Origin: a virus
Taxonomy: Duplodnaviria > Caudoviricetes
IMG/VR virus record: IMGVR_UViG_2898902220_000006
Span: 20,854 to 84,853 of that record
Length of the DNA stretch: 64,000 bases
Reading direction: 5' to 3' (one strand)
This document shows positions 1-59,710 of the stretch, in pieces; the stretch's first letter is position 1, and each line of letters starts with the position of its first letter. The position numbers were made by a program, and so were the translations under genes. The notes beneath the pieces were generated by a model. The model was not told the DNA's origin. It did not search any database and saw only the letters and a list, made by a program, of their open reading frames with translations.

Positions 1-1
1 A

Positions 2-130
2 TCAATCTTCTTTTATTTGGCTAACGAGCTGCTTTCCATTCTTGAAAATGCTGGTAGGATCGGTGTTCCTGTACCAGACGTAATTAAACGGGCTGTAGAG
101 GTTTTGAAAGATAAAGGAGAGGGTAAGTAA
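2..130 (+). CDS. Phage holin, 3' end (phage holin 4_1 / toxin-secretion-lysis type)
   Basis: Manual translation SIFFYLANELLSILENAGRIGVPVPDVIKRAVEVLKDKGEGK*; the NE..SI.ENAG..G.P.P motif is typical; the stop overlaps the lysin ATG. Confidence 0.85.
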   Translation, partial: SIFFYLANELLSILENAGRIGVPVPDVIKRAVEVLKDKGEGK

Positions 131-903
131 TGCAAGCTAAAAATGAAACCAACATCAAAGGGATTGACGTATCCCATCATAATAGCCTGATTGATTGGAA
201 GCAGGTTGCCTCAGACGGCGTGAAATACGCTTTTATTAAAGCGACAGAAGGAACGGGATTTGTTGATAAAAAGTTACGTGAGAACGCCACACAAGCCCAT
301 GAAAACGGAATCAAGGTTAGTTATTATCACTTTGCCCATCCTGATATGTCCCCACAGGCTCAGGCAAATCATTTTCTTACCACTATACAAGGGTTACCCC
401 TTGATTTTCCAGTGGTGCTAGATATAGAAACAACGAAAGGATTACAAGCATCACAGATTACAACGTTTTGTTTAGCGTTTCTTACTCACATCAAGGCTCG
501 CACAGATAAGACCCCTATCCTTTATACAGGAGCTTCTTTTGCTAAGACTCACTTAGGTAAAGAGCTTGTTGGCTTCCCATTGTGGGTTGCTCATTATAAC
601 GTTGACCAGCCGATGAAGAATAACACATGGAACCGTTGGGCTGTATTTCAATACACGGACAGTGGGAAGGTACGCGGCATCAATGGAAACGTAGACATGA
701 ACTGGATGGAAAAAGAATTTTGGGATATACACATGAAGGAGGAAACAACTGTGGATAAAATGTTAGCAAATGAGCTTATTTTGGTTTTGAAAACACAATG
801 GAAAGTTAGTGACGCAATGGGAATGAAGGAGCAAGCGAAATACCTTGGTGAACTTGCCGATCGGGTACGTGTTGCTAGTGGACAGGAGCCACAGAATAAA
901 TAG
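130..903 (+). CDS. GH25 muramidase endolysin
   Basis: GIDVSHH, FIKATEG, LDIE and FQYT..G.V.GI.GNVD motifs; follows the holin. Confidence 0.92.
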   Translation: MQAKNETNIKGIDVSHHNSLIDWKQVASDGVKYAFIKATEGTGFVDKKLRENATQAHENGIKVSYYHFAHPDMSPQAQANHFLTTIQGLPLDFPVVLDIETTKGLQASQITTFCLAFLTHIKARTDKTPILYTGASFAKTHLGKELVGFPLWVAHYNVDQPMKNNTWNRWAVFQYTDSGKVRGINGNVDMNWMEKEFWDIHMKEETTVDKMLANELILVLKTQWKVSDAMGMKEQAKYLGELADRVRVASGQEPQNK

Positions 904-925
904 TTAACGCTTTAAGGGAACAAGA

Positions 926-952
926 AAACGTCCGAGGGAGATTCGGACGTTT
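926..952. terminator. Probably bidirectional intrinsic terminator between lysin and lipoprotein genes
   Basis: AAACGTCCGA / TCGGACGTTT inverted repeat between convergent genes. Confidence 0.75.
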
Positions 953-971
953 CTCTTTGCATAATGATGCC

Positions 972-1607
972 TCAATCTAGATCAGTTATATCTTCAATAA
1001 GGTAATGATCCTTATCTTTGACAAGATTGAATTGTACCTTTACTATAATTTGTTGTTTATTTTTGAAATTAGAGGAATCGTATCCAATACCTGTTATCAG
1101 AACGCTTGTATTTGTTTCACTTTTCTTTTGGAGGTCTACTTTTAGGTCTTCCAAAATCCCTTGTAAGCTTGTTGTGAATCGTTCTGTCTCAATGCACTCA
1201 TAAGTGCCATCATCTTTCTTTTTAAAATAAAAAGCAAAGATTTCTTCTGCTTTAGTAGGAGTAAAATATTTTGTTAATGTTGAAACAATGACATCTTTCG
1301 AATTGCCATCAATGAACTGCTTTGATCTTGTTAACCATAAAAATTCGCTTGTCCATGTTTGCAATTTTTCAAACCAAATCCACTTAGGTATATCTCCTTT
1401 ACTGGTAAGGACTTCATCACTCAGTACCTCAGGAGCAGATTTTTCTACAAGAGATGCTATGAGAGTTATGTTTTCTTTTGTTAGTAAATCATTCCGTATA
1501 CTACTTGTAGTTTCAACTTTACTTGGAGAACACGCTGAAATTGAAGTGGTAGCAATTATGGAAATCAGTAAGAAAAGAAAAACTTTTTTCATCACCAAAC
1601 CCTCCAT
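972..1607 (-). CDS. Lipoprotein of unknown function (likely start MKKVF at 1592)
   Basis: Basic N-terminus, hydrophobic stretch and lipobox-like ISAC. Confidence 0.75.
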   Translation of the reverse strand: MEGLVMKKVFLFLLISIIATTSISACSPSKVETTSSIRNDLLTKENITLIASLVEKSAPEVLSDEVLTSKGDIPKWIWFEKLQTWTSEFLWLTRSKQFIDGNSKDVIVSTLTKYFTPTKAEEIFAFYFKKKDDGTYECIETERFTTSLQGILEDLKVDLQKKSETNTSVLITGIGYDSSNFKNKQQIIVKVQFNLVKDKDHYLIEDITDLD

Positions 1608-1678
1608 TCTGTATTCAATTTTTTATTTTAAAAGCAAGAACCCCCTTATTATAAAGGGGGCACAAGGCATTTGTCAAT

Positions 1679-2329
1679 TTATTCCAAAGGTATTCCTAAT
1701 TCAGTACGTTGCTCAGGTGTCATTGCACGAATTTCTTCAAGGCTATAAAAAATGGAGTCTTCATTCGTTAGCTCTGGAGGTAGCATGTCTGTCTCAATAC
1801 TATCTATATCGAATTCTTGTATCTTTGTAGTAAAGGTTTTAATCTTAGGGAAATATGGCAATGGATCAAAAGGTACGTTTCCAAAATCATATTTTGTACC
1901 ATTTCTTGTTTCAAAGTGTAAGTGAACACCATCGGCGCCACCTGTTTCTCCCATTTCCCCGATCTGTTCTCCTTCAGAAACTTTCTCATCATCCGAAACC
2001 AAGGGTTCTTTATTTAGATGAGCATACCAAGTTTGCACATTTTTTTTATCGACAGTATGGTTAATTACCACCAAATAACCATAACTACTCTTTTTACCTT
2101 TCTTGCTTTCATGGTATCCAGAAAAAGCAACTTTACCACCAAAAGCTGAAACTATAGAATCTCCAGCCTTCCCTGCTTTCTTAGCTCCAATATCTAGTCC
2201 CTTATGACCATTTCCGTACTTTTGTGTCACTCTAGTAGAGTCGGGAACAGGCCATGTTGCGGCTAATGCTGTAGTGGATGAGGTTAGAATTGCTATTGCA
2301 GTCAGTAGTGCGAATCCTTTTTTCATCAT
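1679..2329 (-). CDS. Secreted M23 family metallopeptidase
   Basis: Signal peptide, HKGLD (HxxxD), YAHL and HLHFE (HxH) motifs. Confidence 0.9.
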   Translation of the reverse strand: MMKKGFALLTAIAILTSSTTALAATWPVPDSTRVTQKYGNGHKGLDIGAKKAGKAGDSIVSAFGGKVAFSGYHESKKGKKSSYGYLVVINHTVDKKNVQTWYAHLNKEPLVSDDEKVSEGEQIGEMGETGGADGVHLHFETRNGTKYDFGNVPFDPLPYFPKIKTFTTKIQEFDIDSIETDMLPPELTNEDSIFYSLEEIRAMTPEQRTELGIPLE

Positions 2330-2447
2330 TTATCACCTTTCTACTTTTCGATATAGAATTGCTCAAACAATTCTTTTGAAAATTAATTAAATATTTACAT
2401 TGTATCCTTATGAAAATGATGTAAATATTTACAATTGTAAGGTTAGT

Positions 2448-2585
2448 TCATCGCTTTTTTTCTAGCAAAATCTTTTTAGCTTTATCTTTAAGATCAAGTC
2501 GGCGTTCAGACCATTCTTGTTTTAATTCTTGTTTTCGTAATATTTCCTCTGGCTCTATCAATTTCAATTTCTTGATAAGAGTCAC
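2448..2585 (-). CDS. Small basic protein, 45 aa (not in ORF track)
   Basis: GTG start; MTLIKKLKLIEPEEILRKQELKQEWSERRLDLKDKAKKILLEKKR*; GGGG just upstream. Confidence 0.5.
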   Translation of the reverse strand: MTLIKKLKLIEPEEILRKQELKQEWSERRLDLKDKAKKILLEKKR

Positions 2586-2701
2586 CCCATACCAACATAA
2601 TGGACATTCTAATTGTCTTAAAGGAATAGCTGAAACACGGCTGTTTTCTTTTCAAAAGGTTTATTCCGTACAGCTTATTCTCATATCCGACAACTACTTT
2701 T

Positions 2702-2878
2702 CTAATAAAAAAAATTTTTTCCCTTTAAACGCAAGGGCATGATAAACTTGAATGGAGCATTTTTTAAATGCTTGGAGTGTCGGGGTGTTCCTAAGCTTTC
2801 GTCGGGCCTATGGGAACATCCCGTTTTTATTTCCCTCTTAACTTCCTTCTCTGGACATTTATTGTCCCATACTAGCAT
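2702..2878 (-). CDS. Possible small protein, 58 aa (not in ORF track)
   Basis: Strong RBS AGAAAGGAG before ATG; MLVWDNKCPEKEVKREIK...KNFFY*; coding status uncertain. Confidence 0.35.
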   Translation of the reverse strand: MLVWDNKCPEKEVKREIKTGCSHRPDESLGTPRHSKHLKNAPFKFIMPLRLKGKNFFY

Positions 2879-3071
2879 GTGCCAACTCCTTTCTATGAGT
2901 ATTCCTTATTTGCTACCCTCCCTTCTCTGGCAACCACAAAAATGATAAAAATAACGTATTTTTCTATATTTTTCATGTGTTGCCATTTGTTGACTTAATT
3001 ATATATCAGTAGGAACAAATTTTCCTAATAGAAATTTGTGTTAATTAATTAAGTCTTTTTGTTTGATTCTC

Positions 3072-3236
3072 TTATTTTCTCTTAAAAATTAAATCTGGTA
3101 ATTTTAGTGAAACTATTATCGTGATAAATAATAAGATGCATCGTGTCCAGAAGGACAAGTCTGGAATCATGTTAATCGAATAAAAGGATAAAAATAGTAG
3201 AACTACTGTTAATAAAGTGTTTTTTATAGTGATCAT
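3072..3236 (-). CDS. Small two-TM membrane protein, 54 aa (not in ORF track)
   Basis: RBS AGGAGG; MITIKNTLLTVVLLFLSFYSINMIPDLSFWTRCILLFITIIVSLKLPDLIFKRK*. Confidence 0.7.
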   Translation of the reverse strand: MITIKNTLLTVVLLFLSFYSINMIPDLSFWTRCILLFITIIVSLKLPDLIFKRK

Positions 3237-3264
3237 AAAGTAGATTCTCCTCCTAATTCATTCC

Positions 3265-3291
3265 AAAAAAAAAGAGAGGATGCCCTCTCTA
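3265..3291 (-). terminator. Intrinsic terminator after the propeptide gene
   Basis: Minus strand AGAGAGG-GCAT-CCTCTCT followed by a long T run. Confidence 0.85.
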
Positions 3292-3292
3292 A

Positions 3293-3415
3293 TTACCAAC
3301 CTTCACCTACGCTTTTTGAAGAAGCTGTTGTTTCCAATTCCTTAACCTCAAAATTCGTTTCTGTAAAGCCGTACAAGGAAAGAATCGCTAGTAAGAAAAT
3401 TATTCCTCGCTTCAT
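3293..3415 (-). CDS. Secreted signalling propeptide, 40 aa (Phr/AimP/AloP-like; not in ORF track)
   Basis: MKRGIIFLLAILSLYGFTETNFEVKELETTASSKSVGEGW*: basic N-terminus, hydrophobic core, polar C-terminus; RBS-like GGGACGGTGA; overlaps the receptor 3' end. Confidence 0.85.
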   Translation of the reverse strand: MKRGIIFLLAILSLYGFTETNFEVKELETTASSKSVGEGW

Positions 3416-4697
3416 GTAAATCACCGTCCCTTTCTGTCATGACATCGACAAATTTGTCTTTTTGTTCTGGTGTTGCAAGATAATCATATTCATAATACTT
3501 CAAAATAATGCTACGGACTCTTTCTACATTTTTAAACATGATAGCTAGGTCTAGAGCTTCAAAGATGTATTCAAACCCTTTATTGCTATCCTCAATTATA
3601 AAATAATATGAGGCTAATGCTTGATAAAGTTTTAGCTTATGTCTTTTGGTAGGAATGCTTGTTTGACAAGCAATTTTTTTGATTTGTTCTTCAAAGGTAC
3701 AGATCAGTTTTTGAATGCTTTCTATATCTTTATTCTGTAAATATGTTTCAACAGCAACTGGCAATAACATAAATATTTCAACATCAGTAGCTAAACTAGC
3801 AAAGTTGTCAATGTATTCGACATGGCCCATTTCTATTGAAAATAATAATTCGTTTAATTTTGAAATTTGCTGATAGCCTTCATAGTTAGCATATTCTTTA
3901 GTTATAAGCAATGCTTTATTATAATCTTTCATTTCTCGATAACTAAAGGATTCATATAGTAAGGCTTCCGCTATGAATTTGTTATCGTTTAATGTGATAG
4001 CCAATTCCTTCAATTCTGCTGCATACTTTAATAATTCCCCCCATTTTTCTACGGCATTATAAAAAGTTAATATTTTATAATACGCTTCTAGTTTATATTC
4101 TTCTGGAAGTATAGGAAAGTATTCTAAAAATTGGTAAAGAGTTTGATACCCAGAGACAGTAAGGTCTATATCTCTAGCTATTACAAATCGTTTAAAATAA
4201 GAAATGGCTGCTCGTTCATTACGAGTTGTACTGTTCGCGGTCACGATATCATACAAGGGCAGACTGTAGTTTCTTTGATCGGATGAAAAAATATGCTCTG
4301 CCATCTTAAAGGTGTTATCAAGAAGCCTTCTTCTATCTGTATCATCTTTGATCAATTCTATGATCCTCTTTGTAATGTCATATCGTTCTACGTTGATACA
4401 ACTTGTGAAAAAATCAGCAGTTTTAACAGGTGACAATTTTCCTGATTCGTTAAAGCATTCCCCAATAAAATACTCATAGAAGGTGTCTTTCGGTAATCCT
4501 AAAGCTTCTGTAATAGCGTCTAATTGAGGTAATGTCAATCCCCGTTTGTTGTTCATTATTTGACTCAAAGTAACTGAATCAATTCCGGTGGCGAGAATCA
4601 AATCTTTTTGTTTCCATTCTTTTTTATCAAGTGCATCTTGCAAATGCTGACGTAGTTCTATTTGTGCCTCTTGATAACTGTATTCCAAAGCTTGCAT
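3348..4697 (-). CDS. XRE-HTH plus TPR-like regulator (RRNPP-type peptide receptor)
   Basis: N-terminal HTH (KQKDLILATGIDSVTLSQIMN), long helical Tyr/Ala-rich C-terminal region, adjacent propeptide. Confidence 0.8.
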   Translation of the reverse strand: MQALEYSYQEAQIELRQHLQDALDKKEWKQKDLILATGIDSVTLSQIMNNKRGLTLPQLDAITEALGLPKDTFYEYFIGECFNESGKLSPVKTADFFTSCINVERYDITKRIIELIKDDTDRRRLLDNTFKMAEHIFSSDQRNYSLPLYDIVTANSTTRNERAAISYFKRFVIARDIDLTVSGYQTLYQFLEYFPILPEEYKLEAYYKILTFYNAVEKWGELLKYAAELKELAITLNDNKFIAEALLYESFSYREMKDYNKALLITKEYANYEGYQQISKLNELLFSIEMGHVEYIDNFASLATDVEIFMLLPVAVETYLQNKDIESIQKLICTFEEQIKKIACQTSIPTKRHKLKLYQALASYYFIIEDSNKGFEYIFEALDLAIMFKNVERVRSIILKYYEYDYLATPEQKDKFVDVMTERDGDLHEARNNFLTSDSFLVRLYRNEF

Positions 4698-4877
4698 TTA
4701 CCTATCCCCCTTATTGGTCTTGGAAATATAAGGAAAAACGTAACTTCCCATATGATACTGTAATTAGATAATATTGTAAACTATAATGAAAGGAAATAAA
4801 TGATTTTTTTAGAAATATTAAGTACCTATAGGTTCTCAAATATTGTAGGAGAGAGTAGAAAATCTACTCATCAATGC

Positions 4878-5120
4878 CTATTGTTCCCGTTCCCATTCGT
4901 AGAGGTCTTCCATGCGGAAGTTTGGCATGTACGCCTGAATGATGCAAGTAATGGTATACATAGCTTCTGGAGACATCGGTTTTGTATTGGTAGCATAATG
5001 CGATATCATTCTGGCTGAATAACCTGTTCGCCTCGCTAACTCAGCTTGTTTCATACCAATAAAGTTCAGGACGGGCTGTAATAGGCATTTCCCACGTAGG
5101 TAAGATACCATTACATTCAT
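4878..5120 (-). CDS. Small XRE-family HTH regulator
   Basis: MKQAELARRTGYSARMISHY HTH; EDLYEW tail. Confidence 0.8.
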   Translation of the reverse strand: MNVMVSYLRGKCLLQPVLNFIGMKQAELARRTGYSARMISHYATNTKPMSPEAMYTITCIIQAYMPNFRMEDLYEWEREQ

Positions 5121-5172
5121 TCCCTATAGGTTAATATTTGATTTATCAGAGGCAAAATTATTTCCTAAAACC

Positions 5173-5203
5173 AGAACATACATTCCCGTTTTTATGTTAT
5201 AAT
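5173..5203 (+). promoter_or_regulatory. SOS-box-like site plus extended -10 promoter
   Basis: AGAACATACATTCC (5173-5186) is one mismatch from the GAAC-N4-GTTC core; TG-T-TATAAT at 5195-5203. Confidence 0.45.
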
Positions 5204-5266
5204 AGTTTTAACAACATTTAACAACTATGAAGAGAATTTAAAAGTAATAGGATGGGGGATTGATCA

Positions 5267-5446
5267 ATGGTACGTGATCGCGTAATTGTAGATATAGACA
5301 AATTAGCAAATGTAATAAAGATCAATTTACGAAATGTAATAGATGTTACACCTAATATTATTCGTAATCGCGTTCAACACGAAGAAAGGCAATTAACTTT
5401 TTCCATTCCTTCTCGGTCAACTCCCGACCATCCACAACTACTTTGA
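5267..5446 (+). CDS. Small ORF, 59 aa, overlapping the repressor 3' end in antisense (not in ORF track)
   Basis: GGGGG RBS; MVRDRVIVDIDKLANVIKINLRNVIDVTPNIIRNR...PQLL*; lies downstream of the promoter at 5195. Confidence 0.4.
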   Translation: MVRDRVIVDIDKLANVIKINLRNVIDVTPNIIRNRVQHEERQLTFSIPSRSTPDHPQLL

Positions 5447-5789
5447 ACTGTTTTCTTAATTCTTCATCGGATAGATCAATATTTTTTAGAAACTCTTTTT
5501 CGTTTTTATACGAATCAGGGTTTTCTTTTTTTTGCAGTTTTTCATCATCAGAAGGAGCGTAGTCATATAAGTTAACATCAGTTTTACATAATAAATAATC
5601 TGTAGTGACATTAAACAACTCAGCTAGTTTTGCTACAACTTCACTAGGAACATTGGTAATTTTTTCACGTTCATAATTTGAGATATTAGCTCTATTCATA
5701 TTGAGAAGTTTTGCTAGGTCATCTTGTGAAAATCCTCTTTTTTTTCTTAACTCGGCAAGTCTTTTTCCGAATGTCATACTGGAATTCAT
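5358..5789 (-). CDS. Prophage 1 CI-like XRE repressor
   Basis: FGKRLAELRKKRGFSQDDLA...ISNYER HTH; TTDYLL motif; divergent from the Cro-like gene. Confidence 0.88.
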   Translation of the reverse strand: MNSSMTFGKRLAELRKKRGFSQDDLAKLLNMNRANISNYEREKITNVPSEVVAKLAELFNVTTDYLLCKTDVNLYDYAPSDDEKLQKKENPDSYKNEKEFLKNIDLSDEELRKQFKVVVDGRELTEKEWKKLIAFLRVERDYE

Positions 5790-5884
5790 CTCCTATATTA
5801 CGATGAGTAATTTTTAATTTCGAAATTCACACTTGCGCAATTTTGAATTACATGTTATCTTAATCTACGAAAGGAGGTGAACCC

Positions 5885-6127
5885 ATGAAAGGTTCAACAA
5901 AGAAGCCTGTTAGAAAACCTCGATTACGTTTTAAAGAATTGAGAGAATCTAAAGGCACTCAGTTAAAGGTTGCGCAAGATATGGGAGTTACTGAGACAAC
6001 TGTGAGATATTTAGAGAATGGTTACATTAATCCTAGTGTAACTACGTTATTTGGTTTTGCTCATTACTTTGGAACAGATGTTTATGATCTTTGGCCTGAC
6101 TTAGCATTTCAAGGTGTAGAAGTTTAA
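5885..6127 (+). CDS. Cro-like XRE regulator
   Basis: GTQLKVAQDMGVTETTVRYLENG HTH; first gene of the early operon. Confidence 0.85.
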   Translation: MKGSTKKPVRKPRLRFKELRESKGTQLKVAQDMGVTETTVRYLENGYINPSVTTLFGFAHYFGTDVYDLWPDLAFQGVEV

Positions 6128-6321
6128 GAAAGATAATTGTTCTGTTGAGATTAGTATATTACGTAATTCATAATTACGCAACTGGCATTTTACAATTTGT
6201 GCAAATGTTTCTTTGTTATGCCCATAGAGTAATTAATAATTACTTTCGTAGAGGAATTACAAATTACTATTGCCATCCAATCATCAATTCATACTTAAAA
6301 ATAAAAGCGAGGAGATTTCAA

Positions 6322-7035
6322 ATGAAACAACTACAGGTGATTAATCAAAATGGACAACTATTAGCGGACAGCCGAGAAGTGGCTGAAATGGTAGGGAAAC
6401 GGCACGATCATTTGATTAGAGATATTGAGGGGTATGTAGCTGTTTTGGATCAAAACCCAAATTTGGGGACTGACCATTTTTTCTTTGAAAGTAGCTACAC
6501 ATCTGGAACAGGGAAACGATACAAATGCTATCTACTAACCCGCAAAGGTTGCGACATGGTAGCTAATAAAATGACTGGCGAAAAAGGTGTTCTATTTACT
6601 GCCGAGTATGTTACTCGATTCGAAGAAATGGAAAAACAGCTAAGTGGCAACAACTTTACTGGATTGAGTAAGGAGTTACAAGCAATCTTCTTTCTGGATA
6701 AAAAAACGCAGGAGATTGAAAGTCGTGTAACACATTTAGAACAAACGTCAACGATTGATTACGGGCAACAACTAGAGATTAGTAATTCATGCAGAAGTCG
6801 AGTTATGCACATTACTAGCGGTCGCGAGAGCAATGCATATAAAGATATAAACCTACGTTCTAAAGTTTTCAAAGCTATATGGAGAGATTACAAGAATTAT
6901 TTCAAGGTTGATTCTTACCGCAATACTTCTCCATTGGATTATCAAAAGGCCCGTGAATATATTCAGACATGGAAACCGGATGGGAAGCTGTTACGCGAGA
7001 TTGACGAAGCTAACAACCAATTAAGTTTTGTATAG
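6322..7035 (+). CDS. Rha-family regulator/antirepressor with C-terminal ORF6C-like domain (true start likely 6322, not 6145)
   Basis: DSREVAEMVGKRHDHLIRDI and CDMVANKMTGEKG...YVTRFEEME motifs; RBS GAGGAG. Confidence 0.88.
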   Translation: MKQLQVINQNGQLLADSREVAEMVGKRHDHLIRDIEGYVAVLDQNPNLGTDHFFFESSYTSGTGKRYKCYLLTRKGCDMVANKMTGEKGVLFTAEYVTRFEEMEKQLSGNNFTGLSKELQAIFFLDKKTQEIESRVTHLEQTSTIDYGQQLEISNSCRSRVMHITSGRESNAYKDINLRSKVFKAIWRDYKNYFKVDSYRNTSPLDYQKAREYIQTWKPDGKLLREIDEANNQLSFV

Positions 7036-7142
7036 GAAGGAGAAAAGTAAATTGACACTTTTAAAATTGGCTGAGATTTGGGGAAAGAAGCCTTTGCAAC
7101 AGGCTATCATTCTACGAAACGCACAACGAGAGGAGAAAAACC

Positions 7143-8660
7143 GTGGAAATTAAGTTTATATCTATTAAACTGCACAATTTTAAAAGTCACCGTGATCTTG
7201 TCGTAGAGTTTGGCGACCTTACCAAGATCACAGGTGACAACGCAAGAGGGAAATCTAGTATTTTAGAATCCATCTCATGGACATTGTACGGTACAGATAC
7301 GTTAGGTAGCAAGACCGATCCAACACCTACCAATTATGAATACGACCATATATACACAGAATTTTTACTATCTGTTGATAACAAGCAGATTTTACTTGGT
7401 CGCTCGATTGAAAAAGGCAAGAGCAAACTGTATGTAAATGAAGTCCCGACAAAATCCACAGAGTTTGACGAACTGGTCAAGTCTCTATTTGATAAAGATT
7501 TATTCTTAGCTCTATTTAATCCGGTCTACTTCTCTTCTCTACATTGGGAGAAACAGCGTAGTATGTTGCTTCAATACGTTACACCACCACTAAACAAAGA
7601 AGTATTTGCACAACTACCAGAAACACAAGCAAAAAAGCTGTCTGAGCAATTGAAAAAACACACATTATCAGATTTAGAAAAGATTCATCGGGACAATAAA
7701 AACAAGATGGACAAGGCTCTTATAGCGGAAGCAAGTCGTACTAGAACTTTGCAAAATCAACTCAAACATGTATCTCAACTTGATATCAATGTGGAAGAAA
7801 CGAAATCAGAAATTGAAAAGCTCACAAATCAGATCAAAGAGATAGAAGCTACCACGTTTTCAGCAAGTGAAAACAATCAACGATACAGTTCTTTACATGC
7901 TCAAATCCAGTCCCTACAAGAACAAGTTAGTTCCTCAGCTTCAAAGTGGCCCTCATTACGTGACGAGGCTATTGAGGACACATGCAGAACATGCAAGCGG
8001 CTATTAGATGCGGATTCAATTGAAGTAGTAAAGACAGACAAAGCAGAGCGAGAAGAACAGTACAAAGTTAATCACAAGTTGTTGGTGACAAAAAGAAACG
8101 AACTTCAATCTCAACTTGGGCATTTTGAATTTATTGATGTGTCGGAACAACTCGAAAAAATTCGGGAGCTAGAAAAAAAACAAAAATCATTACTTGCTAA
8201 CATTGCGGTACAAGATCAAAGAGAACTGCTACTAGACCAGATTAAACAGGCTGAGAGTGCGGAAATTGAAACTCGTGAAAGTCGAAATGAATCCATCCTA
8301 GTGTTGGATGCAATCAAGGCCTATGAAGCTAAAGCCGCAGAGTTACAAGCAATGAAAGTGCAAGACCTATTTACTACCCTATCCGTTCGCTTGTTTAAAC
8401 AGAACAAAGGTGACGGTGAATATAAACCAGATTTTGAAATTGAAATGGACGATAAACCATATCGAAAGCTTTCCCTCTCTGAAACCATCCGAGCAGGTTT
8501 GGAATTGCGAGACGTTTTGAGTAAACAGTCAGGAATTATTGCCCCTTGCTTTGTGGATAATTCAGAATCTATCACTCGCTTTACTAGACCTTTAGGACAG
8601 TTAATTACATCCAGAGTGGTAGCAGATCAAGAATTGATAATCGAGACGGAGGGCAAATAA
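7143..8660 (+). CDS. SMC/Rad50-like AAA ATPase of the phage recombination module
   Basis: Walker A GDNARGKS, coiled coil with CRTC hook, LS.SE signature, FVDNSES Walker B. Confidence 0.85.
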   Translation: MEIKFISIKLHNFKSHRDLVVEFGDLTKITGDNARGKSSILESISWTLYGTDTLGSKTDPTPTNYEYDHIYTEFLLSVDNKQILLGRSIEKGKSKLYVNEVPTKSTEFDELVKSLFDKDLFLALFNPVYFSSLHWEKQRSMLLQYVTPPLNKEVFAQLPETQAKKLSEQLKKHTLSDLEKIHRDNKNKMDKALIAEASRTRTLQNQLKHVSQLDINVEETKSEIEKLTNQIKEIEATTFSASENNQRYSSLHAQIQSLQEQVSSSASKWPSLRDEAIEDTCRTCKRLLDADSIEVVKTDKAEREEQYKVNHKLLVTKRNELQSQLGHFEFIDVSEQLEKIRELEKKQKSLLANIAVQDQRELLLDQIKQAESAEIETRESRNESILVLDAIKAYEAKAAELQAMKVQDLFTTLSVRLFKQNKGDGEYKPDFEIEMDDKPYRKLSLSETIRAGLELRDVLSKQSGIIAPCFVDNSESITRFTRPLGQLITSRVVADQELIIETEGK

Positions 8661-8661
8661 A

Positions 8662-9570
8662 TTGACTACTCAACTACAAGAAGCAAATACAAACGTAGTT
8701 ATCGGCAATTTCACGCAAAGGGAACTAGATACACTCAAAGCGACTGTTGCGAAAGGAACAACTAATGAACAATTCTCCTTGTTCGTTCAAACGTGCGTAA
8801 GTTCTGGATTAAACCCTTTTCTTAATCAAATATATTGCATCGTTTATAGAGGGCGTGACGGGGCAGTAATGAGTATGCAAATTGCTGTTGAGGGTATTGT
8901 TTCCCTAGCTAAAAGAAACCCACATTACAAGGGCTTTATAGCTTCTGAGGTTAAAGAACAAGATGAGTTTGAAATTAACGTAGCGGCAGGAGAAGTAACA
9001 CACAAAATCACAGCCATGCAACGTGGTAAAACGATCGGGGCCTATTGCGTAGCTTACCGTGAGGGGGCGCCGAACGTTGCGGTTGTAATAACCATAGACC
9101 AAATCGAACATTTAATTAAAGGTCGCAATAAAGATATGTGGCGCGATTACTTTGACGACATGATCGTAAAGCATGCAATGAAACGAGCGTTCAAACGTCA
9201 ATTCGGGATCGAAATTGCTGAAACTGAAAATGTTCCTTCTGAAACCTCTATCGAGAACATGCCCGAATATGAACCTACACAACGCGAAGTTGTGGTTGAG
9301 GTGAACGGTGAAGAAGTTAGAAATAAGAGTGAAAATGTACCTTCCTCTAATGCCGAAGATGAAGAAAGTCATATTAAGCGGATCAAGAAGGAATTAAAAC
9401 ATAAGTTTGAAGTGTTAGGTATTAGCGGAAAAGAAGAAATAAACGCATATATGCAACAGCATTGCCCAATCAAAGGAAATGCCCCTACTCTAGCAGAGCT
9501 AACGGGCCTACTAAAAATCATGGATAAGCACATTGCTGAAATGAACAGCAACGATGATGAACTGGAATAG
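8662..9570 (+). CDS. recT: RecT-family single-strand annealing protein
   Basis: GLNPFLNQIY, GA.GAY and M..KH..KRA.K motifs; lies between the ATPase and nuclease genes. Confidence 0.82.
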   Translation: MTTQLQEANTNVVIGNFTQRELDTLKATVAKGTTNEQFSLFVQTCVSSGLNPFLNQIYCIVYRGRDGAVMSMQIAVEGIVSLAKRNPHYKGFIASEVKEQDEFEINVAAGEVTHKITAMQRGKTIGAYCVAYREGAPNVAVVITIDQIEHLIKGRNKDMWRDYFDDMIVKHAMKRAFKRQFGIEIAETENVPSETSIENMPEYEPTQREVVVEVNGEEVRNKSENVPSSNAEDEESHIKRIKKELKHKFEVLGISGKEEINAYMQQHCPIKGNAPTLAELTGLLKIMDKHIAEMNSNDDELE

Positions 9571-9579
9571 GAGAAATCA

Positions 9580-10335
9580 ATGAAAGTCAAAATCCTTGCA
9601 TCCGGTTCAAATGGAAACTGCATAGCGATTCAATACGGTGATAAATGCATTCTTATTGATGCCGGAGTTGCCAAAACAAAGATAGAAAAGGCTCTACTAG
9701 AACAGGGCATCTACCCTACTAATGTACAAGCCATATTCATTACACACGCACATGGGGATCATGTAAAAGGTTTGCCATTTGCGAACAAGTACAAAATTCC
9801 AGTGTTCGCCACTTATGGCGAATGGAGAAGTATATCAAAAGTGGATATGGAGCTACAAAAACCAATAGAAACGATCTATGGGGCATACCAAGTAATTAAT
9901 ATACATGGGGCGAGTGTTTGCCCCTTCCCTACTCATCACGATGCATACGAGCCTGTAGGGTTCTCAATCATACATGACCAGATGAAAGTTAGTGTGTGCT
10001 TGGATACTGGCAAGGTGGATAAGGAAATGTTAGAAGCTATGAGAGATTCAGACATTTACATTATTGAGTCGAATCATGAACCAGAAATGGTTGAAGTAGG
10101 TCAATATCCTAGCAACGTAAAAGAACGTATCTTGTCAGACAATGGACATTTAAGCAACGAGCAAACAGCGAGGGCATTACAGCGATTAGTACAGGGGAAT
10201 GGTGAACATATCTATCTGGTGCATTTATCTAGTAAAAATAATTTGCCGTCTCTAGCAGAGCTAACAGTAAAACAATTTTTGAAGCAAAAGGGCCTAGTAA
10301 TAGGAGAACAATATAAAGTAGAGGTGATTTCATGA
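9580..10335 (+). CDS. MBL-fold metallo-hydrolase (nuclease)
   Basis: [25 protein letters not shown] and GHLSN motifs. Confidence 0.9.
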
Positions 10336-10748
10336 ATAAGGTATTTCTTATTGGACGACTTACTAAAGACCCTGAGTTGAGATATACGTCCAATGGTGTT
10401 GCAGTAGCTACATTTACCCTAGCCATTGATCGGAATTTTACTGGTACTGATGGGCGGAAAGAAGCGGATTTCATTGGGATTGTGGCTTGGAAGCAACTAG
10501 CCGATCTATGCGCTAACTATCTGGCTAAAGGTAGACAATGCGCCATTGACGGACGAATACAGACTAGAAGCTATGACAACAAGGAAGGCAAGAGAGTTTA
10601 TGTCACGGAGATTGTAGCAGAGCATGTGCAGTTTTTAGGGGGAAGCAAAGGCGAACAAGATAGACAGGGAACCGCAGCGCAACCAAGCGATCCATTTTAT
10701 AGCCCAGGTCAGAAAGTTCAAATAAAAGATGAAGATTTACCGTTCTAA
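10332..10748 (+). CDS. ssb: Single-stranded DNA-binding protein
   Basis: [18 protein letters not shown]; acidic DEDLPF tail. Confidence 0.95.
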
Positions 10749-10773
10749 TAAAAATTATGGGAGATGTTTATAT

Positions 10774-11250
10774 ATGAGAATTCCGATAGATTGTAGAGCA
10801 TTACAAAGTGAAATCAATAGACTTTCTGACAAGGTAAAAACTCTTACACAGGAAAAAGAATTGCTACAAGGTGAGATTAACAACCTAACTCTTTCTAAAA
10901 AATTAAAATTGCCACGCGAGGTTGCAGAAGCGATTGAGCAGGAGTTCGGGAAAGCATCAAATGATAAAAAACAATGGGGATTTTTCAACATCGTTGTTTG
11001 CCGACCAATAAGCTTAAATCACAATGCACGGATCATAAAAAGTTATTTTCATCCTGATAAATATATCGACCTTGCAACTGCTCTAGTAGCAGGCTATACG
11101 ATCGAAGAAACCAAGGAAGAACGGATAAAACGTGGGATACAAGCAATTTATAACCAATGGACTAGAGAACCATCTATCAATGATGAAGAAGACGGAAAGG
11201 ACTTAGGTCAACGAGTCTATACTCTGGTAAAAAGGGAATTGAATCTATAA
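10774..11250 (+). CDS. Phage protein, DUF1642-like
   Basis: LPREVAEAIE...ALVAGYTIE pattern; start moved to the ATG at 10774. Confidence 0.55.
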   Translation: MRIPIDCRALQSEINRLSDKVKTLTQEKELLQGEINNLTLSKKLKLPREVAEAIEQEFGKASNDKKQWGFFNIVVCRPISLNHNARIIKSYFHPDKYIDLATALVAGYTIEETKEERIKRGIQAIYNQWTREPSINDEEDGKDLGQRVYTLVKRELNL

Positions 11251-11262
11251 GTTGGTGGTTTA

Positions 11263-12042
11263 ATGTCTACCCAATTAGAAGATGGTTTTACAAGAATTGC
11301 AAATAAAATACTTGAAGATATTAGTAAGATCAGTTTGAACGGCACTCAATTTAGAATTGTTCTCACGGTGTGGAGATTTACCTACGGCTTTCAGAGAAAG
11401 GAACACGAGTTATCAATAGCTTTCTTAGTGAAATCTACAGAAATTGCTAGGGGACAGATTGACCGTGAGCTTACCGCACTGATTGAACGCAAAATATTAA
11501 CAGTCGTTCGAACTGGTCGAAGGGGGTCAAGAGTGATTATGTTTAACAAAAATCGTGAGGAATGGAATGACCGTCCTCCAATCCGAGGACTGTCCTCTAA
11601 AACGAGGACGGAACTGTCCGCTAATTCGAGGACACTACTGTCCTCTAAAACGAGGAACAAGAAAGAAAGTATTAAAGAAAAAGATAAAGATAATATGTCG
11701 TGTTATGAAGAAATCATTTCTTATCTTAACGAAAAAGCTGGTAAAAGATTTTCTCATAAATCACCTGCAAATAGAAAATTAATCAATGGCAGACTAGCTG
11801 AAGATCGTACAATTGATGATTTTAAATATGTGATTGATGTTAAGTGCAATCATTGGCTAGGTAATCCAGAAATGGAGGACTATTTACGACCAGCTACTTT
11901 GTTTGCCCAAAAGAACTTTGAAAACTATTTAAACCAGAAGGTAAAACAACAAGTCGTTAAACAAGACCCTCGAGACAAAGAAACGGATTTCCAAAGATGG
12001 GTACAAGGAGGTAATGATCCTGATGAATTTGATTGGTCATGA
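11263..12042 (+). CDS. Phage replication initiator (lambda O-like N-terminus, conserved phage C-terminal domain)
   Basis: LEDGFTRIAN.ILE; YLRPATLF...FENYLN; internal iterons. Confidence 0.88.
   Translation: MSTQLEDGFTRIANKILEDISKISLNGTQFRIVLTVWRFTYGFQRKEHELSIAFLVKSTEIARGQIDRELTALIERKILTVVRTGRRGSRVIMFNKNREEWNDRPPIRGLSSKTRTELSANSRTLLSSKTRNKKESIKEKDKDNMSCYEEIISYLNEKAGKRFSHKSPANRKLINGRLAEDRTIDDFKYVIDVKCNHWLGNPEMEDYLRPATLFAQKNFENYLNQKVKQQVVKQDPRDKETDFQRWVQGGNDPDEFDWS
11573..11657. repeat. Four 18-bp iteron-like repeats (probable origin of prophage 1)
   Basis: GTCCTCCAATCCGAGGAC (11573), GTCCTCTAAAACGAGGAC (11592), GTCCGCTAATTCGAGGAC (11616), GTCCTCTAAAACGAGGAA (11640). Confidence 0.8.
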
Positions 12043-15632: not shown

Positions 15633-16688
15633 GTGTATGAGATAATAACGGATGAGCTTATAATTGCTCATACAAACGAAACGGAATACAAAACCTTTAT
15701 CGGAAATAAAAAGAATGAAGCATTACAGTCTAGAATGATTGTCATGCCAGTTCCTTACAATCTGCGGGTAGCAGAAGAAGAAAAGATTTATGATAAATTA
15801 ATTAAGCAATCTGATTTAGGCCATGTTCATATTGCTCCACATGCGCTATATACGGCGGCCATTTTTTCTATTTTAACCCGTTTAAAAGAGTCCAAGAAAC
15901 AAGGCGCTGATCTATTAAAGAAATTACGTTTGTATAATGGTGAATCGGTTGAAGGCTTCAAAGGCTCTGACATCGAGGAATTACGTAATGAGCATGTGGA
16001 TGAGGGAATGTCTGGAATTGATCCTCGTTATGTCATAAACCGGATTTCCAGTGCACTCATTCGTCGTGATACTGAGTCTATTAATGCCTTGGATATTTTG
16101 CGGGCATTAAAAGAAGGGCTCGATCAGCATGCTTCCATTAGCAAGGAACAGCGAGAGCGTTACTTAAATTTCATCTCTATCGCACGTAAAGAGTACGATG
16201 AGATTGCGAAAAAAGAAGTTCAGAAGGCTTTTGTGTACAGCTATGAGGAATCAGCTAAAACCATGATGGATAATTATCTGGATAATGTTGAGGCGTATTG
16301 CAACTCTAACCGCTTACGTGATCCAGTAACAGGTGAAGAATTGGAACCAGATGAACGTCTCATGCGGTCTATTGAAGAGCAGATTGGTATTTCCGAAAAT
16401 GCCAAACGTGCATTCCGTGAAGAGATTCTTATTCGAATATCAGCTTATGCGCGTAAAGGTAAACGTTTTGACTACAACACGCATGATCGTCTGCGGGAAG
16501 CGATTGAGAAAAAATTATTTGCAGATTTAAAAGATGTGGTTAAAATAACAACCTCCACGAAAACACCAGATGAGCATCAATTGAAGAAAGTGAATGAAGT
16601 GACACGTCGTTTGGTTGAAGAACACGGATATACGCCAATTTCAGCAAATGAACTGCTGCGTTATGTGGGTAGTTTGCTGAATCGATAG
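15633..16688 (+). pseudogene. prkA: 3' part of the split sporulation gene prkA (YeaG family)
   Basis: DELIIAHTNETEY...NKKNEALQSRMIVMPVPYNL, EGMSGIDPRYVINRISSAL and [12 protein letters not shown] are PrkA-like; the N-terminal ATPase part is missing and the first codons (VYEIIT) come from the phage side. Confidence 0.88.
15634..15674. other. Putative attR of prophage 1 inside prkA
   Basis: TGTATGAG / CTCATACA 8-bp inverted repeats centred at 15654 (GATGA), where similarity to PrkA (DELI.AHTNE) begins. Confidence 0.6.
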
Positions 16689-16696
16689 GAGGGGGA

Positions 16697-17761
16697 ATGA
16701 TGAACGACTCCTCGTTTATCGTCTCCAAAGAAGACTGGTCTCTGCATCGCAAAGGTCATCAGGACCAGAGCAGACATCAGGAAAAGGTAAAAGAGGCGAT
16801 CAAGAAAAACCTGTCTGATTTAGTAAGTGAAGAAAACATCATTATGTCTAATGGGCGAGAAATTATTAAAATACCAATCAGATCGCTGGATGAGTATCGC
16901 TTCCGTTACAATTTTAATAAAGGCCAGCATACAGGCCAAGGTCAAGGGAATTCCAAGATAGGAGATGTGGTAGCTAAAGACGGTGAACCGGCTGATGCTA
17001 CTGCGGGCCAAGGTCAAGGAGCTGGCGATCAACCTGGTAACGATTATTATGAAGCGGAGATTACAGTAGAAGAGTTGCAGGAAATGCTGTTTGCTGAGTT
17101 GGAGTTGCCTAATCTCCAAACGAAAGACGAACAGAAAATTACCATAGAAGATATTCAGTTTAATGATGTTCGGAAAAAAGGTTTAATGGGTAACATTGAT
17201 AAAAAGCGTACCTTGATGTCTGCAATTCGCCGAAATGCACTAGCTGGGTATGACGATCTGGAGCTAGGTATCTCTATGGATGACTTGCGATTTAAAACAT
17301 GGGAAGAGATTGTGAAGCCACATTCCAATGCCGTAATTTTGGCAATGATGGATACGAGTGGATCTATGGGAGTTTTTGAAAAATACGTAGCCCGCAGCTT
17401 TTTCTTTTGGATGCTTCGCTTTTTGCGTACCAAGTATGAAAAGGTGGAGATCGCCTTCATCGCGCATCATACGGAAGCGAAGGAAGTGACGGAGGATGCG
17501 TTCTTTTCTAAAGGAGAGAGCGGCGGAACCATCTGCTCATCTGCCTATCGAAAAGCTTTGGAAATTATCGACGCACGATATCCGGTAAGCCAATACAATA
17601 TTTATCCGTTTCATTTTTCCGATGGGGATAACCTGACTTCGGATAATGAACGGTGCGTGAAATTGGTGAAAGAATTGATGGAGAGGTCTAATATGTTTGG
17701 GTATGGTGAAGTGAATCAGTATAACTCACTGTTGTATACACAAAACGGTTCCACTATGTAG
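16697..17761 (+). pseudogene. yhbH: 5' part of the split sporulation gene yhbH (YeaH/UPF0229 family)
   Basis: [37 protein letters not shown] and FHFSDGDN motifs; after GYGEVNQYN the frame runs into non-family sequence and meets the integrase stop. Confidence 0.9.
17696..17744. other. Putative attL of prophage 2 inside yhbH
   Basis: 49-bp imperfect palindrome centred at 17720: TTTGGGTAT/ATACACAAA (8 of 9 pair) and AGTGA/TCACT. Confidence 0.7.
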
Positions 17762-19328
17762 GGAACCGTAAGATAATTTCAATTTCAAATTGCTCTGGTT
17801 TCTTCCACTCTTTCTTGCGAATATAGATTACCTTCTCAATAATGGTTTTGAGGAGGTTATTTTTTTGCTCTGGATCATCTAAGGATTTGTAAGCTTGAAT
17901 AACCTTGTGAATTTTAGGGATAACCTGAGCTTGCATTTTAAGTCGGCTTTTCAATTGATTGATTTCGTTCTGAGACTTTTCTATTTCTGCCTCAAGTTGT
18001 TTTATCTTATCAGAGATGGTTTTATGTCGTTGTAAGAATAACTCTTCTGTATAAATTTTTCTTTCTAACATTTCGAATGTTGTTTCTCTCATACTGTGTT
18101 GCTCTTTCAATTCGGTAGTAGCTTTTTGAATATAATTAGTTAGTGCTGACATACGTTCTTCATTCTTATCTTTTCGTTTATTACGACTACTCAGTTCTGT
18201 TTGTGTCATTTCTTTTTGTTCCACTAACTCTTCTAAGCCAGCTATGATTTTTTCTTCAACCAAGTAAGTTACAATACCTTTCTGTATTGTCTTACATGCA
18301 ACATTGGTACATCTTATTTGGGGATTAGGTCTTTCAGGATTAACAAGCTGTGCTAATGTGCGCCCGCATACTCCACATCTTGCGATACCAGCAAGAGGAT
18401 TAGATACAGATGAGCCTTCTTTTCTAGAGACTCGAAAACGCCCTGTGTGAGCTTCATTAGCTTTAATAAATAATTCCTGACTAACTATTGGTTCATGCGC
18501 ATTGTCATGTCTAGTCCATAATTCTGGGGGGAGTCTTTTAGTGACTCTTTTTCCGTTACGTTTCGTATGTTTCTTCCTGCCCCATACAATGTGACCGATA
18601 TAGACTTCATTTTTAACTAAATAACTTATGGTAGAGTGTTCCCAGATATCTCTTTTCGAGGGAGCCTTATACCCTGCCTGCATAAGATACTCTATGACTT
18701 TAAAACGTCCATATCCTTCAGCCAGTAGCTCGAAGATTTTTTTAACAACTGGAGCTTCTTCGGGATGAGGATAGAGCTTTAGGTTTTCGTCTCTTAAATA
18801 TCCATAAGGGGGGGTTTTAGCGATATGTCGACCATCTTTTACTGCACGCCGCCGACCACCTTGCAAACGCTTATTAATCTGTTTTAACTCTTCACGAGCG
18901 ATGATAGACTTCACACCAAACAATAGTTCTGCACCTTCGGCGTTGCAGTCGATCACTTCTGAGGGGGTAATAATCAGTGTTTCAGAATATTTAAAAGCTC
19001 TGAATATCGTTCCTGCATCGATCATATCTCCACGCCCAAGACGATCTAAGTCCATCACTATTACGCCATCGCATTCTCCATCTTCAACGTTACGCAGCAT
19101 CTCTTGTGCTTCTGGTCTTTCCGATAGAAACTCACCTGATACAATTTCCTCAAAGATTTTTATAACATTATGCTGCTCTCTTCGTACAAGCTCCATTAGC
19201 TCACGTTTGTGCTTATCAAGAGTATCGAAGGGGATGCCAGTTTCAAGGGCCTTTTTTTCTTCTTCGATGTCTTTTCGGCTTTTGCGTAGATGGATAATCA
19301 CGTCAAGGTTTGTAGGTCTACTCATCAA
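17754..19328 (-). CDS. Large serine recombinase (integrase)
   Basis: HLRKSR catalytic Ser motif, [13 protein letters not shown] recombinase domain, CGVCG...C...C zinc ribbon, coiled coil. Confidence 0.95.
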
Positions 19329-22010: not shown

Positions 22011-22394
22011 CTAATTATCTATCTCTGATTTAAAGGCTTCTAGAAGCTCTTTTACTAAATGCTTTTTGTTTGGAGGTAGGTTACGGATTAGATTGATAAT
22101 ATTTTTGTCTTCTTCAGAAAGAGTCGGGTCATTAATGGTAGAGATAAATGGATCAGTTATATCTGTACTGCATTTTTCATTAGTTCTTCCTAATAAGTAG
22201 TCAACAGAAACATTAAAGAAATCAGCTATTTTTTCTAATCGTTCATGCCTTGGCAAACTTTGATCTGATGATTCTAATCTTCTGATTGTAGACTCGGGTA
22301 TGTCTAAAGCTCTAGCTAATTCTTCTTGTGTTATCATTTTTTCTGCTCTTAATTCTTTTAAACGTTTTTTAAAAATCATAGATATCACGCTCAT
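22011..22394 (-). CDS. Prophage 2 CI-like XRE repressor (switch A)
   Basis: RLKELRAEKMITQEELARAL HTH; VSVDYLLGRT. Confidence 0.9.
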   Translation of the reverse strand: MSVISMIFKKRLKELRAEKMITQEELARALDIPESTIRRLESSDQSLPRHERLEKIADFFNVSVDYLLGRTNEKCSTDITDPFISTINDPTLSEEDKNIINLIRNLPPNKKHLVKELLEAFKSEIDN

Positions 22395-59458: not shown

Positions 59459-59710
59459 ATGATAGAGATTGGTTTAGTGATTGCAGTAGTAATGGCATCG
59501 GGTGCTTGGCTGAAAACGCGGAGTTGGTTTCCAAATGATTACATTCCTCTTGCTATTGTTGTGATGGCAGTAGCTTATAATGCTATCAACGCTTTACTGT
59601 TCGGGGGAGATTTACTCGAAGCTGGCAAGATTGCTTTCATTGAGGCAACGGCTGCTATTGGGATTCATTCTGGAGTTAAAAATTCGTTTCAAAAGGGAGA
59701 TGTAGAGTAA
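59459..59710 (+). CDS. Holin
   Basis: TM segments; YIPL; A.G.HSG.KN; precedes the lysin. Confidence 0.8.
   Translation: MIEIGLVIAVVMASGAWLKTRSWFPNDYIPLAIVVMAVAYNAINALLFGGDLLEAGKIAFIEATAAIGIHSGVKNSFQKGDVE

Follow-up and report, generated by a model that had tools for sequence, protein, structure and literature searches.

Does a prophage of Brevibacillus laterosporus carry a peptide signalling system of its own, and what would such a system control? The question is raised by a locus in a 64,000-nucleotide (nt) stretch of DNA (the window), which spans positions 20854-84853 of the 84.9-kb IMG/VR provirus record IMGVR_UViG_2898902220_000006 from that host. An earlier note, made from the sequence alone, had described here a 449-amino-acid (aa) protein with a helix-turn-helix (HTH) domain and helical repeats, overlapped by an unannotated 40-aa open reading frame (ORF) that is followed by a terminator; an ORF scan and the predicted hairpin confirm this layout on the minus strand. 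To our knowledge, experimentally proven peptide communication in phages is essentially limited to arbitrium in Bacillus, and we know of no test of the other predicted phage RRNPP pairs. The evidence given below leaves little doubt that the locus encodes a receptor-peptide pair of the RRNPP/Alo kind, and the pair makes a credible phage-linked signalling module. The kind of system is known; what is specific here is a 68-nt overlap that hides the peptide gene (aloP), a defined pherotype set and a single candidate target. The parts that matter first are the following.

3348..4697, minus strand: aloR-like receptor gene, 449 aa (ORF; Pfam HTH_26/HTH_3)
3293..3415, minus strand: aloP-like propeptide gene, 40 aa from ATG (ORF scan, conservation, hydropathy profile)
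3265..3290, minus strand: intrinsic terminator directly after aloP (G+C-rich stem-loop 3290-3273 plus T-run)
4752..4780, minus strand: candidate sigma-A promoter of aloR, TTTACA-17-TATCAT (consensus scan only)

Is the small ORF a gene? It carries no annotation and overlaps the 3' end of the receptor gene by 68 nt, or about 22 codons; an alternative upstream GTG start would give 43 aa (3293..3424). As in other RRNPP systems, the small gene adjacent to the receptor encodes a positively charged n-region (MKR) and a hydrophobic core, here of 14 residues (Kyte-Doolittle 9-mer peak 3.2), and the product ends in ...SVGEGW. A purine-rich, Shine-Dalgarno (SD)-like motif (AAGGGA/AAGGGGGA) lies ~9-12 nt upstream of the ATG, both here and in homologous loci, and the terminator hairpin, which is conserved in most loci, begins 3 nt past the aloP stop. 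Homologous loci were taken from assemblies and from species-representative genomes, and receptors 58-99% identical, at 12 distinct loci, were treated as the close clade. All 12 loci have a small ORF of 40, 44 or 45 aa in the same overlapping position, the overlap being 68 nt, or 92 nt with receptors that are extended at the C-terminus, and every product has a Lys/Arg n-region, a hydrophobic core and a GEGW-stop end. The differences in length are multiples of 3, with indels in frame. The 18-22 codons past the receptor stop, which lie in intergenic sequence that diverges freely, are open and end in GEGW-stop in 12/12 loci, and synonymous changes are found at the conserved C-terminal Gly codons (GGT/GGA/GGC) and at the stop (TAA/TAG). 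In distant paralogues the two genes overlap by only 4 nt and the peptide is of the same kind. The conserved position, the in-frame indels and the synonymous Gly and stop changes argue that the small ORF is more than chance, and indicate that aloP is a conserved gene in its own right. Genes of the aloP type will escape gene callers that do not permit long overlaps.

What kind of receptor stands next to it? An N-terminal Cro/C1 HTH (aa 18-71) is followed by an all-helical tetratricopeptide repeat (TPR) domain (~aa 76-423). Pfam detected nothing in the protein beyond the Cro/C1-type HTH at aa 18-71, NCBIfam gave no match, and PHROGs returned generic regulator families only. The AlphaFold2 model, built from a 60-sequence alignment (mean pLDDT 92.1, pTM 0.87), shows the HTH and then ~20 paired helices, with disorder confined to the last ~25 residues. 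These residues (window 3348-3425, shared with the signal-peptide part of aloP) have a pLDDT of 43-53, yet close on a conserved YRNEF. An exhaustive structure search with VIA-align placed NprR-NprX (4gpk) at the top (Z 17.2, rmsd 5.8, 277 aligned residues), with phi105 Rap (Z 15.7), SPbeta AimR (15.2), RapH, RapI and phAimR within the top 11, and PlcR-PapR at Z 12.8. Foldseek against the PDB gave generic TPR matches, Rap proteins among them, and the receptor family profile matches consensus TPR proteins (E 3e-7). The helical repeats of the earlier note are thus predicted with high confidence to be a TPR-type domain that resembles RRNPP receptors. NprR-NprX of the Bacillus cereus group, the best structural match to the TPR domain, likewise consists of an HTH plus TPR regulator and an adjacent exported propeptide; unlike the pair described here, it is chromosomal and regulates a neighbouring protease gene, and identity is 11%, with no sequence-level match. 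The mature NprX peptide is internal, not C-terminal.

To which family does the pair belong? A phmmer search over 1.8 billion representatives returned 160 clusters, the distant ones being 450-490-aa Paenibacillus regulators with AloR motifs, and the motifs QLDxIT, GLPxxxFY and SERLA-type are common to the receptor family and published AloR sequences. By hhalign, the family profile matched a 78-residue non-HTH fragment of Paenibacillus polymyxa AloR6 (aa ~113-190; 98.8%, E 9.3e-17), taken from the supplement of Voichek 2020 (PMC7425212). The fragment aligns at the equivalent position, receptor aa 126-198, and the receptor is thus homologous to P. polymyxa AloR outside the HTH. Three AloR-like proteins of B. 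laterosporus DSM 25 entered in Table S2 of Voichek 2020 are likewise 449 aa long (PMC7425212), and among the pairs reported by RRNPP_detector is one of the AloR subfamily, on a B. laterosporus plasmid, whose two genes overlap by 47 nt. By its sequence, the receptor is a member of the already described AloR family, not the founder of a new family and apparently no arbitrium relative. The earlier note had named AloR-AloP among its examples of RRNPP systems and had left the pair without a place in any family.

The likeness to the Alo family extends to the whole layout. Both have a ~450-aa HTH receptor with a divergent TPR part, a propeptide gene of 32-50 aa (here 40 aa) that overlaps the end of aloR or comes just after it, multiple paralogous systems in a genome, and a C-terminal ~6-mer as the mature signal, known for Alo and presumed here (PMC7425212). 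The source paper searched for propeptide genes overlapping the aloR 3' end (PMC7425212). In the genomes compared here, 3-4 paralogous modules with differing peptides are found. The receptor of the window is, however, only ~20-30% identical to Paenibacillus AloRs, its peptide signature is xxGEGW rather than SHGRGG, and its clade has the 68-nt overlap and is tied to a prophage lineage. Downstream of the pair lies a ~0.4-kb element with genes for secreted hydrolases, in contrast to the Spo0E-like gene of Alo13; such a gene follows 6/16 P. polymyxa systems and is frequent, not defining (PMC7425212). Close homologues of the receptor all come from Brevibacillus (21/21), mostly from B. laterosporus. 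Two paralogous loci (L026 and L029) hold a receptor match with one in-frame stop each (TGA, TAG) and propeptides ending in IVGGGW.

Which part of the propeptide would be the signal? In the close clade the C-terminal GEGW is invariant, and the residue pair before it is of five types, SV, SF, IY, TY and GY. Each type falls within one clade of the maximum-likelihood receptor tree (SV clade 100/100, SF clade 94/94), a distribution consistent with receptor-peptide co-divergence. Conservation per column is 85-95% over the first 220 residues of the close-clade receptors (the HTH side) and drops to 66-79% over residues 221-380, the pattern expected if DNA recognition were kept while peptide recognition diversified; the residues before GEGW appear to change in step with the TPR half of the receptor. 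Residue N282 of the receptor is nearly invariant across 60 homologues. Propeptides of more distantly related paralogues from these genomes end in IVGGGW. In phage Emery, the signal peptide of gp61 is followed by HGGIGW twice, with the second copy at the very C-terminus, and this repeat unit delimits a 6-mer of the form xxGxGW, which corresponds to SVGEGW in this window. The mature form of AloP13 is the C-terminal 6-mer SHGRGG (PMC7425212). By analogy, the mature peptide is quite probably of the C-terminal xxGEGW type, with SVGEGW as the most likely 6-mer here. A distant AloR paralogue (25% identical; L012:2286-2432 in G001:C45) has a propeptide that contains NVGEHG twice, one copy internal and one C-terminal.

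Several expectations of the earlier note can be judged from these comparisons. The small ORF is conserved beside homologous receptors, as its account of the pair required, and the variable peptide residues track receptor clades, in line with the receptor-peptide co-variation it had looked to. Its guess of (S)VGEGW as the mature peptide fits both the xxGxGW pattern and the Emery 6-mer repeat. It was also right that the peptide is unlike those of arbitrium, which share an xxxxGA pattern that SVGEGW lacks.

Emery provides the closest parallel from an isolated B. laterosporus phage. Its gp60 (KC595516) is a full-length homologue of the receptor (hhalign 100%, E 3.8e-64), the next ORF is the 43-aa signal-peptide protein gp61, ending in GGIGW, and the pair stands beside XRE regulators. 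The two pairs differ in that identity is ~22-24%, the Emery peptide gene does not overlap its receptor gene, and gp61 has two HGGIGW repeats. The Emery genes (L041:3950-5433) carry no annotation beyond 'DNA binding protein' and 'hypothetical protein', and next to them gp54-57 (L041:1593-3271) form a cassette that contains AgrB. RRNPP pairs in phages and prophages of Brevibacillus are among the predictions of earlier large screens. A literature search found no study of the GEGW clade or of Emery gp60-gp61; the accessible portion of the RRNPP_detector supplements holds no match for GEGW, Emery or its accessions, which carries little weight.

What would the receptor act on? Directly behind the aloP terminator, every locus carries a conserved block of ~80-87% nucleotide identity, which is above the conservation of the receptor genes themselves. 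In the window it comprises two parts.

2998..3028, minus strand: conserved promoter-like region, TTAGGAAAATTTGTTCC (GGAA-N6-TTCC inverted repeat), then TGATATATAAT (conserved in 12 loci)
2597..2997, minus strand: conserved ~0.4-kb element in the aimX/spo0E position (locus alignments)

TGATATATAAT is an extended -10-like sequence next to TTAGGAAAATTTGTTCC, and we regard 2998..3028 as a candidate AloR-controlled promoter/operator. The operator motif has a single occurrence in the 64-kb window, and the conserved receptor aa 1-220 match the presence of this conserved downstream promoter element. The element itself contains a long 5' hairpin, a strong SD, a 58-aa ORF (2702-2878; 58-64 aa across loci) and further hairpins. 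The 58-aa ORF is intact in 9/12 loci, with indels in frame, and the RNA of the element folds better than shuffled sequences (minimum free energy z = -2.85). Searching window 1-7000 against Rfam at E <= 1 gave only a chance-level rli48 match on the opposite strand, and the element fits no described RNA family; Pfam at E <= 1 gave no family for the 58-aa ORF, for the 45-aa ORF that follows the element, or for their homologues. The idea of an antisense target for the element was dropped, as its complementarity elsewhere in the window is no better than chance. Near CI/Cro, no second operator-like site was found within 3 mismatches.

In the Alo13 system, the receptor is a direct activator of the gene next downstream of aloP13, which its peptide turns off (PMC7425212). 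The chance that the adjacent downstream unit here is a direct target of the receptor is slightly better than even. As in AloR13/AloP13 and AimR/AimP, Sec would export the propeptide and processing would leave its last ~6 residues as a peptide, which would then be re-imported and bind the TPR groove of the receptor. Binding would switch the activity of the receptor at the promoter just behind the aloP terminator: peptide-free receptor would activate the promoter and the peptide would turn it off, as in Alo13 and arbitrium. Whether the peptide acts as such an off-signal is an even call. The promoter would drive the conserved ~0.4-kb small-ORF/structured leader, and probably the 45-aa ORF and a gene for a secreted M23 peptidase as well, since the minus strand from 3265 to 1661 has no predicted terminator.

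The pair belongs to one of two prophages in the window, and its position there bears on what it may do. The neighbouring features are listed below.

130..903, plus strand: GH25 endolysin, last gene of the late operon, convergent with the module (Pfam Glyco_hydro_25, E 1.3e-51)
972..1607, minus strand: 211-aa predicted lipoprotein with its own consensus promoter, cargo (ORF, promoter scan)
1679..2329, minus strand: secreted M23 peptidase, cargo (Pfam Peptidase_M23, E 1.9e-21)
2448..2585, minus strand: 45-aa basic small ORF, member of a multicopy cassette (locus comparison)
3072..3236, minus strand: 54-aa small ORF with two transmembrane (TM) segments and a perfect AGGAGG ribosome-binding site, between the aloP terminator and the downstream promoter (ORF scan, locus comparison)
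4878..5120, minus strand: 80-aa weak-HTH protein upstream of aloR (Pfam HTH_3, E 7.6e-4, below cut-off)
5358..5789, minus strand: CI-like repressor, 143 aa, HTH_19/HTH_3, no peptidase domain found (Pfam/profile matches)
5885..6127, plus strand: Cro-like HTH protein, divergent from CI (Pfam/profile matches)
15633..16688, plus strand: 3' part of host prkA, right end of the module-bearing prophage (Pfam; PrkA from about position 271 of the AAA domain model onward)

Positions 1-20853 of the record are filled with plus-strand late genes, the last of which is the GH25 endolysin at window 130-903. After it, the minus strand carries in order the genes for the lipoprotein, the M23 peptidase and the 45-aa ORF, the conserved element with its 58-aa ORF, the 54-aa membrane ORF, the small peptide ORF, the receptor gene, the 80-aa weak-HTH gene and the CI-like repressor gene. 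Cro and the early genes run opposite to the module, as far as the truncated host prkA (15633-16688) and then yhbH. This order (lysin, module, CI/Cro, truncated prkA) indicates that the pair lies inside one prophage inserted in prkA, between lysin and switch. The prkA site is also occupied in strain LMG 15441, by a decayed prophage in which prkA, CI and aloR are arranged in the same way.

Is the module part of the phage? Wherever the flank of a close-clade locus reaches far enough, it shows a GH25 lysin, whole or fragmentary, downstream and convergent; upstream, CI, Cro-side or HTH80 sequences are still present at several loci. The lysin of LMG 15441 is full-length but diverged (67% identical), and a CI-like gene is present, with prkA at the same site; in L002, L007 and the G006 locus the lysin is reduced to fragments of 59-80 aa. 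These flanks argue that the module is ancestrally part of this phage lineage. The notion that loci of the L002/L007 type are not of phage origin was discarded on account of the endolysin fragments; L007 also keeps the 80-aa HTH gene and a scrap of yhbH. In the remnants where CI is gone and the lysin is a fragment, aloR, aloP and the element are intact, a retention that speaks for some advantage independent of a functioning lysis-lysogeny decision. The 80-aa HTH gene is co-conserved with the module in the G006, G005, G004 and L007 loci, and the conserved block stops near 5139. Among the loci compared, the 99%-identical G006 locus is the only one to share the 54-aa two-TM ORF with this prophage.

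The genes behind the element are less constant. They encode the M23 peptidase and the lipoprotein here, and a C92/CHAP-like amidase or other signal-peptide proteins elsewhere. The cargo block (window 925-2700), made up of the lipoprotein, the M23 peptidase and the 45-aa ORF, is 97% identical to contig C2 of genome G006 (131 kb, possibly a plasmid), and the module (window 2466-5139) shares 94% identity with the chromosome of G006, on which it is followed by a C92 amidase instead. Since cargo and module match different G006 contigs, the locus is mosaic. The 45-aa ORF belongs to a family of basic ORFs of 45-52 aa (consensus start VT[PL]IKKLKL..., GTG start) which, together with ~110 nt upstream, has more than 10 copies in G006 and is also found at L035-L040. 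This cassette, which takes up 2448-2700 on the minus strand of the window, always lies directly upstream of genes for diverse signal-peptide proteins, and it is also found without a receptor. No family was found for the 45-52-aa ORF in Pfam, PDB or Atlas.

Taken together, we favour as reasonably likely the reading that the locus is an AloR-AloP-type (RRNPP) quorum-sensing cassette in the lysogeny-strand arm of the prophage, between endolysin and CI/Cro, which acts on the downstream promoter. Several observations weigh against one or another part of it. Non-RRNPP TPR proteins score nearly as high in VIA-align (Z 16.4-16.1), the TPR fold being generic, so that the fold alone assigns no function. 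The aloP product is signal-peptide-like by hydropathy profile and has no obvious AXA cleavage site. The mapping of peptide types onto receptor clades could stem from shared descent alone, as related sequences share labels. The operator is a guess, and loci whose terminator runs directly into the promoter do not conserve the left arm of its inverted repeat. The 58-aa ORF is broken in 3/12 loci despite an intact receptor and peptide, and its variable sites per codon position (16, 14 and 15) carry no coding signature. RNAalifold finds many conserved hairpins in the element, of which 3/88 consensus pairs are compensatory; this covariation is weak, and with 3 such pairs too few, a claim for a structured RNA was given up. 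A Spo0E identity for the downstream small ORFs was likewise rejected, as there is no Pfam family for them and the 45-aa profile has no PDB sequence match. Finally, the sign of the regulation is borrowed from a ~25%-identical homologue.

Whom would the cassette serve? A possible though less probable explanation is that it is a domesticated or moron quorum-sensing unit for the host, which makes the production of secreted cell-wall hydrolases density-dependent, for competition or autolysis, and that it takes no part in the life cycle of the phage. The cargo fits this explanation, being always a signal-peptide protein but variable in kind, and exchangeable, as its match to a different G006 contig indicates; so do the retention of the module in decayed prophages and the 3-4 paralogous modules per genome with different peptides. 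On the other hand, the cassettes of 45-aa ORF and secreted protein often stand without a receptor and may have promoters of their own, and the read-through from the element is inferred solely from the absence of a predicted terminator. Moreover, this explanation overlaps the cassette reading favoured above, from which it differs only in the beneficiary.

A rather unlikely explanation is that the pair works as an analogue of arbitrium, reporting the density of lysogens or of recent infection and biasing lysis-lysogeny or induction through an AimX-like element (RNA or small protein). Several features are shared with AimR-AimP-AimX of SPbeta-like Bacillus phages. The pair is phage-borne, its receptor is of the HTH plus TPR type with structural similarity to AimR (5xyb, Z 15.2; 5zvv, Z 14.5), and its signal is presumably a C-terminal 6-mer; receptor, peptide, terminator, own promoter and short conserved transcript follow one another as in aimR-aimP-aimX. 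As the earlier note had observed, the module sits in a prophage next to CI/Cro: it is on the lysogeny strand, directly downstream of CI and adjoining Cro. The synteny of lysin, module and CI recurs in several loci, Emery has its homologous pair beside XRE regulators, and the CI-like repressor has no peptidase domain, so that an input other than SOS is conceivable. However, the receptor has no detectable sequence relationship to AimR (phmmer against PDB sequences gave no AimR match at E <= 10), and AimR is no closer in structure than other RRNPP receptors. The element has no sequence relationship to AimX and no complementarity to the rest of the prophage beyond chance. The peptide lacks an xxxxGA/RGA pattern, the host belongs to a different genus, and the downstream genes encode secreted enzymes rather than regulators. 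The pair resembles arbitrium in layout and phage location only. The operator-like motif is missing from the switch region, its sole occurrence being downstream of aloP, and aloR, aloP and the element survive where the lysin is a fragment of 59-80 aa and CI is gone. Given this retention in remnants, the lack of complementarity and the lack of an operator-like site at the switch, we rank arbitrium-like control of the switch lower. The proposal of the earlier note that the prophage counts lysogens to steer lysis and lysogeny finds no support in the analyses made here; lysis-lysogeny control is possible but unsupported.

An extended form of this idea is also unlikely. It would have a second, independently evolved arbitrium-like system, in which an Alo-type receptor and an xxGxGW hexapeptide set lysis-lysogeny or induction via an AimX-like element in Brevibacillus temperate phages, remnant copies then letting the host eavesdrop on or jam related incoming phages.

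It is highly improbable that the small ORF is only a side effect of its overlap with the receptor frame and that the receptor is an orphan XRE-TPR regulator with no peptide partner: the ORF is unannotated, and two thirds of its signal-peptide part lie within the conserved receptor 3' end, which could passively keep the frame open, but its intergenic codons are open to a GEGW-stop end in all 12 loci, its indels and its Gly and stop changes preserve the product, an SD-like motif is conserved before its ATG, and the same kind of peptide recurs in Emery and in distant paralogues with a 4-nt overlap.

If only the ordinary reading holds, the locus adds one more Alo system. It is nevertheless a well-defined case, with a precise receptor, an overlapping peptide gene hidden from annotation, a predicted 6-mer, four natural pherotype variants and a single candidate target promoter. 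B. laterosporus is an insect-control and probiotic organism and is found in beehives. In view of these uses, density-controlled behaviour of a prophage or of secreted hydrolases has some practical relevance.

Compared with sequenced phages by megablast, window 1-12000 gave no match. The host sporulation genes prkA, of which only the C-terminal ~351 aa are present, and yhbH/DUF444 (window 15633-17761) lie between the two prophages. The second prophage begins at ~17.7 kb with a large serine recombinase (17754-19328, minus strand) that abuts yhbH. The rest of it, at 19.9-60.4 kb, includes an XRE repressor of its own (22011-22394) and late genes, with a glucosaminidase lysin (59710-60333) at its end.

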